A stretch of 20,244 bases of DNA from Candidatus Heimdallarchaeota archaeon (GCA_015523565.1 WAKA01000120.1:1-20244), one strand, 5' to 3'; shown: positions 10,020 through 11,597, counted from the first letter of the stretch. Numbers and translations: made by a program. Notes: generated by a model from the letters alone, not told the origin.

Positions 10020-11597
10020 TCAATTGTCATCGACATTGTGGAGAGAGCTGATTTTCTTTAGGCGTGACCGCAAATCACCAATGAGATCAACTTTTTCCTC
10101 TTTTTCTTCTTCCTCTGTTGCTTTAGAACCTGAAACCATACCCAACCCTTGTCTGATTGTTTTTACAATTCTTTGTGCATTTTCAAGCATAGGAGTGGAG
10201 ACATCAACAGCCAAGATTGCAATAGCATATTCATCTTGCAACTTCGCAAAGTAAATATCAAAGTCATCAAAGGTGAGATGACCTAAACCACGATATTCAA
10301 TGTCACCAATTTCCTTAAAGAATTGCTTTGGAGAAAGAGATTGTACCACATTCTTTACGATTTCTATTTTTTCCTTTTCAATTTCGGATTTGGCAACTGC
10401 AAGGGGAACTTTTCCATCAAGCCCCAAGATTGCCAAGGCAACAATTTCAGGGGTTTCATTCATACGTTTTGTGATAACAGCAGAAAGCTGATCTACAATG
10501 TGGGTTGAAAGGTCTGAAAGATCCGGGACTTCCTCATATGTTTTCCCTTCCTCATAAACAGGAGAGGGAATTGAAGACACGATGTCTTCACTTTCTGTTT
10601 CAGATTTAACTTCAGTGGGGGAGGAAGATTTTTCTTCCATAGCAGACGGGCTGGTCGGAGGAGGACTTGAGGGAACAGGTGTAGGAGCTTTAGGGACGGG
10701 GGTAGGTTCAGGAATTGCCTTTGACTTTAAGGATGATGGGGAAGATGGAGGGGGAGGAACTGACGGTTTTTCTTCCTTTTCGATGTCAGAAAGTAGAGAA
10801 TCAAGTTTGTCCGAAAGTTTTTCTGAAAGAAATTCATCTGTTGCCACCGATTTTGTTGGTTTAGGGACTACAGAGGGAGGTGCTGAAGAGGATGGGGCAG
10901 TTGACGGGGTCGTGGAAGTTGCAGATGAGGTAGGAGTTGAGGCTGTAGGAGTTGGAGTTGAAATTTTGGGAGCGGTTTCACCAATGCGAGGAATTGTCTC
11001 TGCTTTCTTTGGAGCTTGTGAAGTTGGAGTGGTAAGATCAGGGGTGTAATTATCCAAATTTTCCCAAAGTATCCGTTTGACTGCTTTTTGAATAGTATCT
11101 GAATAAATAGAGGTTGCAAATCCTGTAAATTTCATTCCAGTTATTTTGTCCGCTTGCCTAAAAAGTTTTGTTGCCTTAAAGAAATGGGAACGTAATTTTG
11201 CGGCTTTGTCTGGGTCGAACTTGTGGAAAAGAACATATACCTTCGGTCTTGGCTCTACATTGATGAGAATATTCATGATATCAAGATAATACTGATATGC
11301 CTCTTGAAATCGATCGACATCCTGAATGTCAACAACAAAAATCAGTGCCTTTGTGGAATTGAAGATTTCTGGTTTTGACAAGTAGGTCTCCCGATAGGAT
11401 TGCTGACCACCCAGATCCCAAACACTAAAGTCGAGGTCCATAAAGTCAGAAATGTTTCGTTCAATACCACGGGTTGGTTTGGTGCTTGCAAGCTCTTGGA
11501 CTGGGATTTCCTTCATTGTTGCTTTGTAAATGGTTGTTTTGCCTGCGGAATCTAGCCCTGCAAAAATTAATTTTGTCAACTGACTTGAGGTATTCAC
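10020..11597 (-). CDS. Arf/Rag-like small GTPase fused through a long Pro/Ser/Thr-rich linker to a roadblock/profilin-like domain
   Basis: G1 GLDSAGKTT, G2 PTRG, G3 WDLGGQ, G4 HKFD, G5 TSIY in aa 8-180. Low-complexity P/S/T/E region at aa ~186-360. aa ~366-485 has an alpha-beta-beta-alpha-beta-beta-beta-alpha pattern (EIVALAILGLDGKVPLA; FDIYFAKL; YAIAILA). GTG start. Confidence 0.85.
   Translation of the reverse strand: MNTSSQLTKLIFAGLDSAGKTTIYKATMKEIPVQELASTKPTRGIERNISDFMDLDFSVWDLGGQQSYRETYLSKPEIFNSTKALIFVVDIQDVDRFQEAYQYYLDIMNILINVEPRPKVYVLFHKFDPDKAAKLRSHFFKATKLFRQADKITGMKFTGFATSIYSDTIQKAVKRILWENLDNYTPDLTTPTSQAPKKAETIPRIGETAPKISTPTPTASTPTSSATSTTPSTAPSSSAPPSVVPKPTKSVATDEFLSEKLSDKLDSLLSDIEKEEKPSVPPPPSSPSSLKSKAIPEPTPVPKAPTPVPSSPPPTSPSAMEEKSSSPTEVKSETESEDIVSSIPSPVYEEGKTYEEVPDLSDLSTHIVDQLSAVITKRMNETPEIVALAILGLDGKVPLAVAKSEIEKEKIEIVKNVVQSLSPKQFFKEIGDIEYRGLGHLTFDDFDIYFAKLQDEYAIAILAVDVSTPMLENAQRIVKTIRQGLGMVSGSKATEEEEKEEKVDLIGDLRSRLKKISSLHNVDDN

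Follow-up and report, generated by a model that had tools for sequence, protein, structure and literature searches.

The C-terminal tail of a Rag/Gtr1-like GTPase was analysed in a 20,244-nucleotide (nt) stretch of DNA from Candidatus Heimdallarchaeota archaeon (GCA_015523565.1 WAKA01000120.1:1-20244; the whole stretch is hereafter the window). The 525-amino-acid (aa) protein, P0001, consists of a G domain, a long linker, a roadblock-type domain and, tethered behind a flexible acidic spacer, a conserved amphipathic helix (Table 1). The tail is a genuine motif despite the chance-level frequency of its bare core, and it marks a roadblock subfamily, not the G domain. It is tentatively read as a family-specific tethered docking helix, most likely acting within the GTPase-roadblock switch; this is the reading that we favour, while holding it to be somewhat short of probable. 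The protein itself is of a known kind, the Asgard Rag-like GTPase-roadblock proteins, and its new part is the tethered docking motif.

The tail motif and its roadblock subfamily

An earlier reading of the DNA made without database searches (the sequence-only reading) had compared the tail with the MIM1 motifs of ESCRT-III proteins and with the actin-binding WH2 motif. Translation confirmed that positions 10050-10088 encode aa 504-516, DLIGDLRSRLKKI, and that L509, R512, L513 and I516 had been numbered correctly; the acidic spacer and the roadblock domain placed ahead of the tail were both found as well, by translation and in an AlphaFold2 (AF2) model. The protein had been thought to end at SSL, but it continues with HNVDDN (SSLHNVDDN), and the tail therefore comprises aa 503-525.

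Short motifs match easily by chance, as had been cautioned. When the last 30 aa of 3168 crude open reading frames (ORFs) of the genome were scanned as a background, LxxRLxx[LIV] was present in 10 of them, so that a single match of this kind means nothing. Alignment of the tails revealed a longer conserved pattern. Among 33 orthologs (Heimdallarchaeota or Kariarchaeaceae where they are named), D508, L509, L513 and L519 were invariant and D504 nearly so, while the length and sequence of the spacer varied freely. A core of D-L-phi-x-[DE]-L-[KR]-x-[KR]-L, to which the full family motif adds x-x-phi at its end, was kept in 51 of 54 distinct family tails, with column counts of 42 for D504, 45 for L505, 45 for D/E508, 52 for L509, 50 for R/K510, 54 for R/K512 and 48 for L513. 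Conservation at L509, R512, L513 and I516 had been proposed as a check by the sequence-only reading: L509 and L513 were invariant in the orthologs and R/K512 was present in every distinct tail; I516 is replaced by Arg in clade f7, and position 516 as a whole holds I, L, M or V in 42 tails and R in 9. A position-specific scoring matrix (PSSM) built from 49 distinct 13-mers of the family tails scored the C-terminus of the window protein at 32.3 bits, compared with 10.7 bits for the next best among the 3168 C-termini. A phmmer search of the 26-aa tail against chains of the PDB gave no match at E<=10.

The result is a conserved C-terminal amphipathic helix after a flexible acidic spacer. Its narrow Leu/Ile stripe has conserved charged residues beside it, acidic at 504 and 508 and basic at 510 and 512, a pattern which suggests protein recognition. 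The possibility that the tail is just an ordinary helix in the structure of the roadblock domain was rejected, given the variable spacer, the duplication of the motif in one paralog, and structural alignments with Rag proteins that stop at about residue 488.

When the last 153 aa of the protein were used in an exhaustive search, only 28 clusters were returned, stand-alone proteins among them. These paralogs are 166-465 aa long and carry a roadblock-type domain without a G domain. In most of them the chain ends in the family motif (for example ...DLKDELRSKLDEL, ...ELKLDLRSRLDKLKD and ...QLVKDLRSKFKSLD), separated from the domain by a charged low-complexity spacer of roughly 30 to 290 residues, and one, P0047, has two copies of the motif. 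Across the whole protein family, spacer length spans ~12 to roughly 290 residues. Because the tail is conserved across relatives and is carried by GTPase-less paralogs, it belongs to the roadblock subfamily rather than to the G domain, and the motif marks one Heimdallarchaeial roadblock subfamily, G domain present or not. The protein family was present in 27 of 400 Asgard genomes, which belong to families f1, f2, f4 and f7, together with one f32 genome. In f1, it was found in 10 of 11 genomes in addition to the window's own genome; the same 400-genome scan did not find it in f3 (0 of 31 genomes, from the same order), f5 or f20. The spacers of two paralogs, P0048 and P0050, contain 2-4 near-identical repeats of ~60-80 aa with PPxxYEDKFA...RVDPR, and the GTPase-less paralogs P0047, P0048 and P0050 resemble adaptors.

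The assignment of the G domain was supported by both sequence and structure. Pfam matches to Gtr1_RagA (PF04670, E 3.5e-27, aa 9-177) and Arf (E 8e-20) together covered aa 5-177, and downstream of aa 177 no Pfam match was obtained. In the AF2 model, for which an alignment of the 33 orthologs was used as input, the G domain spans aa 9-180, with predicted local distance difference test (pLDDT) values of 74-90 across most of it. The G domain alone aligned with Gtr1/RagA at VIA Z 18-19 and a root-mean-square deviation (rmsd) of 2.3-3.1 over ~155 residues. The roadblock domain was recognized from its fold: Robl_LC7 gave no Pfam match even at E<=10 in the last 60 aa or the last 153 aa, and since a profile of the roadblock domain and tail family produced noise only against PDB sequences, the assignment rests on the modelled fold. 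In Foldseek and VIA comparisons, the best two-domain structural matches were LokiRagO (8yl2; VIA Z 18.5, 253 residues aligned, model 7..488) and then LokiRagM (8zla/9m28; for 8zla, VIA Z 16.6 and 259 residues aligned), and Gtr1/RagA were also matched. The high rmsd of these two-domain alignments reflects the free orientation of both domains. Every two-domain Rag alignment stops at residue ~485-489, which places the tail outside the Rag fold. In the ESM Atlas, the nearest clusters are ~160-aa bacterial proteins of MglB size, one cluster having Robl_LC7 on 13% of its members, which is to be taken as a lead only.

The loop EYRGLGH of the roadblock domain (aa 434-440; 10278-10298, minus strand), between helix a2 and strand b3, was invariant in the 33 orthologs, and the GTPase-less paralogs mostly retain it; AF2 modelled it with low confidence. 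The loop may be a functional site, such as one that supplies the Arg.

GTPase-roadblock fusions of Asgard archaea have already been described as the 'GTPase-RB' class (PMC10933270). Like these proteins and eukaryotic RagA/Gtr1, the window protein has a G domain of the Gtr1/RagA type and, C-terminal to it, a roadblock domain. Unlike LokiRagO, LokiRagM, RagA and Gtr1, it joins the two domains by a disordered Pro-rich linker of ~175 aa and carries an extra tethered C-terminal helix motif beyond the aligned Rag fold. In the literature searched, no description of the tail of this GTPase-roadblock protein was found.

Comparison with MIM1 and WH2 motifs

The tail was considered as a MIM1-like ligand that recruits a MIT-domain protein, either Vps4 or the MIT-longin protein P0063 described below, and thereby couples the Rag-like switch to the MIT/ESCRT machinery; on the evidence that follows, we regard this as rather unlikely. 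The resemblance proposed by the sequence-only reading held in the window protein for the relaxed core (L509, R512, L513, I516), while the strict consensus, the third Leu and the comparison with ESCRT-III tails of the same lineage did not bear it out. The ELM consensus of MIM1 is [DE]xxLxxRLxxL[KR] as cited in PMC12057046, a paper which also reports that several MIT domains need no more than LxxR-phi-xxL and that MIM1-like motifs are not confined to ESCRT-III. MIT domains, moreover, have at least seven binding modes (PMC9477494). The tail of the window protein fits L-x-x-R-phi-x-x-[LI], and among the 54 distinct tails L..R-phi..L was present in 14 and L..[RK]phi..[LIVM] in 42. Its position at the C-terminus behind a flexible spacer is also that of ESCRT-III MIMs, and it shares with them an amphipathic helix with hydrophobic residues at i, i+4 and i+7 and a basic residue at i+3.

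The strict pattern, in contrast, was found in none of the 54 tails, position 1 being hydrophobic and position 12 Ser or Gly; in the window protein, positions 1, 11 and 12 are I506, I516 and S517. Nor was it present in any C-terminus of the genome (3168 ORFs), the ESCRT-III proteins included. The clade f7 tails (...DLMTELKMRLHNRGKSVD...) have Arg at the third hydrophobic position. None of the most conserved tail residues (D504, L505, D/E508 and K/R510) is a MIM1 position, and the host is a Rag-like GTPase-roadblock protein, not an ESCRT-III protein of the Snf7 fold.

The genome encodes two ESCRT-III genes and one Vps4 (MIT+AAA, contig C32; MIT domain at L002 1459-1725). The ESCRT-III genes are adjacent, at L005:1441-2767 (contig C11 of the own genome). 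Across the class, ESCRT-III C-termini read [DE]LExEIxxLR[KR] (the CHMP1-like subunit) and [DE]LExELxxLKKEL, with Glu at the Arg/Lys site of the roadblock tail and Arg/Lys at its Ser/Gly site. On the tail PSSM, the ESCRT-III tails of the lineage scored -0.1 and -0.3 bits (ranks 156 and 165 of 3168), so that both the PSSM and the C-terminal patterns set the tail apart from MIMs of its own lineage. Helix 3 of the Vps4 MIT domain, Y-V-A-R-A-K-D-L, aligns to Y-L-D-R-A-E-K-L of human VPS4B, with Ala and Lys replacing Asp and Glu. These Asp and Glu residues of the human protein presumably pair with the MIM1 arginine. The Ala/Lys replacement matches the Glu of the lineage ESCRT-III tails and, to judge from these alignments, would disfavour an Arg-bearing ligand; the comparison argues against canonical type-1 binding of the tail to Vps4, although another of the MIT binding modes may still be used. 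The MIM1 label is thus weakly supported and unjustified for the tail, which is a partial look-alike of MIM1, different in host, in positions 1 and 12, in the third Leu, in its extra conserved residues and in its charges relative to the lineage ESCRT-III tails. Separately from the roadblock tail, the lineage ESCRT-III proteins with Glu at the eukaryotic MIM1 Arg site and the Vps4 MIT domain with Lys in place of Glu look like a charge-swapped MIT-MIM pair.

A weak MIT match led to P0063, a 271-aa protein encoded outside the window on another contig of the same genome (C121:1421-2233, minus strand; L067:1421-2233:-). In its AF2 model, P0063 starts with a three-helix bundle (pLDDT 84-92) and closes with a longin-type domain, the two being joined by a disordered Pro-rich linker. 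Foldseek matched it with the longin subunits of AP, TRAPP and Mon1-Ccz1, and with the VPS4B MIT domain (2cpt) at E 3e-3. By sequence, the MIT part is weak (16.7 bits in Pfam against a cut-off of 30; E 0.55 for the profile against the PDB). To our knowledge, no eukaryotic MIT protein combines an MIT-like bundle with a longin domain. The longin-type domain alone gave 18 matches in the window's genome. Full-length P0063 orthologs were found only in family f1, in about 10 of 12 genomes, while the tail is conserved also in f2, f4 and f7; as its range is narrower than that of the tail, P0063 was rejected as an obligate or universal partner. It is nevertheless a natural candidate partner and keeps the MIT reading alive. 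A narrower proposal sees in the tail a MIM-like ligand, with the MIT domain of P0063 foremost and that of Vps4 as the alternative, and would physically link the Rag-like switch of GTPase and roadblock domain to an MIT/longin module, possibly also to ESCRT; it is distinctly unlikely in our estimate. If it were true, the pairing of roadblock and longin domains would be reinforced by a MIM-MIT tether.

The actin alternative fared worse. According to it, the tail and the proline-rich linker would form a WH2-like binder of G-actin, and the protein would be a WASP-like actin regulator; we consider this very improbable. The features that it can draw on are the polyproline tracts of the linker, an actin gene of the genome on contig C57, and the short helix with its LKKI tetrapeptide, for which an alternative register fits a WH2-like regular expression (based on the ELM pattern). 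Nothing ties the actin gene to the tail. The spacing is short, as the sequence-only reading had already acknowledged. Between the helix hydrophobics and LKKI there are just 3 residues in the natural register, compared with about 4-7 in WH2. With this 4-7 spacing, the expression matched 2 of the 54 tails. A conserved tetrapeptide of the LKK[VTI] type could not be seen, L[KR]x[VATI] occurring in 14 of 54 tails and position 514 being S, D, H, Y or Q in 24 of them. Furthermore, a single continuous helix runs through LKKI in the AF2 model, and the Pfam WH2 profile gave no match at E<=10 in the last 60 aa or the last 153 aa, short-motif profiles being insensitive. A WH2 label for the tail is therefore not supported: LKKI itself is present, while WH2 fails on spacing and on LKK conservation.

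Proposed docking within the switch and alternative partners

The tail almost certainly binds a partner of some kind. In the docking-helix reading, its hydrophobic stripe and salt bridges would bind a protein groove, and the partner would most likely be part of the same switch complex, namely the G domain or a roadblock/longin dimer, contacted in cis or in trans between paralogs. Docking of the tail would then tune the nucleotide state or assemble oligomers. The evidence for a docking helix comprises the conservation of the tail compared with the free variation of the spacer, the recurrence of the tail in paralogs, its narrow range, the score of 32.3 bits compared with 10.7, a modelled helix that follows a low-confidence spacer, the end of the Rag-fold alignments at residue ~488 and, as a lead only, the MglB-sized bacterial clusters of the ESM Atlas. 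The conserved K174/R175 of helix a5 of the G domain (33-ortholog consensus) is likewise counted in favour of the reading.

Roadblock dimers bind amphipathic helices of their partners, such as dynein IC and LAMTOR1. A precedent is offered by MglA/MglB of Myxococcus xanthus. In MglB, a roadblock domain is followed by ~16 disordered residues and an 11-residue C-terminal helix. This helix binds MglA at an allosteric pocket made up of helix a5 and the b2-b3 region, and has a regulatory effect on nucleotide exchange (PMC6785124). The window protein shares this layout: its roadblock domain leads into a disordered spacer and then a short terminal helix, and the helix and the roadblock domain occur together. 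Because of this match in layout, docking within the GTPase-roadblock switch complex is favoured by us.

Several observations weigh against this reading. The MglB helix is D/E-rich and unrelated in sequence to the tail, which is of mixed charge with a Leu stripe: although D504 and D/E508 are conserved, K/R510 and K/R512 are as well, and the net charge in the window protein is +2, whereas an MglB-type helix is acidic and pairs with basic residues on helix a5 of the GTPase. In the single-chain AF2 model, the pLDDT of 67-71 over the tail gives no confident docking in cis. No GTPase gene was found within ~1.5 kb of the stand-alone paralogs, whose neighbours are unrelated enzymes, and a profile search of the own genome returned the window protein as the sole member of the family. 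Finally, the conservation pattern would fit a third-party partner, for instance an MIT domain, just as well.

The tail might instead dock on a third party other than an MIT domain, actin, a membrane or the switch complex. This is possible, though in our judgement fairly unlikely, and the reading is reached by exclusion. It is consistent with a tail that fits no known motif family and with the adaptor-like paralogs that carry several linear motifs, namely the two tails of P0047 and the repeats of P0048 and P0050.

An amphipathic helix may also contact lipid, and the tail could anchor the GTPase-roadblock complex to a membrane in place of a lipid anchor. Asgard small GTPases are without prenylation tails (PMC10933270), and the helix of the window protein is amphipathic (hydrophobic moment 0.3-0.5), carries the net charge of +2 and reaches 1.1 in a HeliQuest-type discriminant, within the 'possible' range. 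Other family members, however, score lower (0.46-0.98), the mean hydrophobicity is low (-0.12 to 0.34), and the hydrophobic face is narrow and without aromatic residues. The near-invariant D504 and D/E508 and the strictly conserved K/R point to specific protein recognition instead. A membrane helix was accordingly judged unlikely, and we hold it to be highly doubtful.

A tail peptide of ~20 residues offers a handle with which the partner of an archaeal Rag-type switch may be fished. If the partner proves to be the G domain or a roadblock dimer, allosteric control in the style of MglB would also reach the Rag lineage. An MIT domain as partner would mean that signalling by small GTPases had been joined to MIT/ESCRT modules ahead of the origin of eukaryotes, in archaea closely related to them.

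Gene layout and neighbourhood

The features of the gene are collected in Table 1. Translation of the ORF revealed GTG as the start codon.

Table 1. Features of the GTPase gene and its downstream neighbour, in window coordinates.
Feature	Residues (aa)	Position	Strand	Basis or remark
Whole gene: Rag/Gtr1-like GTPase P0001 with long linker, roadblock domain and tethered tail	525 aa	10020-11597	-	ORF list, translation
G domain	5-185	11043-11585	-	Pfam, AF2, VIA
Linker, disordered, Pro/Ser/Thr-rich (~175 aa)	186-359	10521-11042	-	AF2 pLDDT <50 outside one helix; alignment
Linker helix	256-272	10782-10832	-	AF2; retained in close orthologs only
Roadblock-type domain	360-484	10146-10520	-	AF2 topology a-b-b-a-b-b-b-a; two-domain Rag alignments
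Flexible acidic spacer (ATEEEEKEEK)	485-502	10092-10145	-	AF2 pLDDT <50 for aa 489-502; unconserved in orthologs
C-terminal tail helix	503-525	10023-10091	-	AF2 helix 505-523, pLDDT ~67-71; conserved in orthologs and GTPase-less paralogs
Motif core DLIGDLRSRLKKI	504-516	10050-10088	-	Translation; column counts over 54 distinct tails
HTH_34 winged-helix regulator gene		9679-10002	-	Begins 17 nt past the GTPase stop codon

The GTPase gene lies 56 nt downstream of an ABC-2 permease gene and 17 nt upstream of the HTH_34 regulator gene, and the latter is probably co-transcribed with it. The order of ABC-2 permease, GTPase, HTH_34 regulator and CTP synthase was kept only within the genus (L008, L010); as the synteny is limited in this way, the genes were not treated as a functional module. 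No Rfam family was found on either strand of 9000-12000. A plus-strand ORF at 10024-10254 was rejected as a shadow of the minus-strand gene.

The linker differs in both sequence and length among the orthologs in the alignment. Its helix at aa 256-272 is leucine-periodic. Within aa 186-359, repeats of the [VI]P[KR]I[GS] type and polyproline runs recur in the orthologs, while the remainder of the linker is unalignable.

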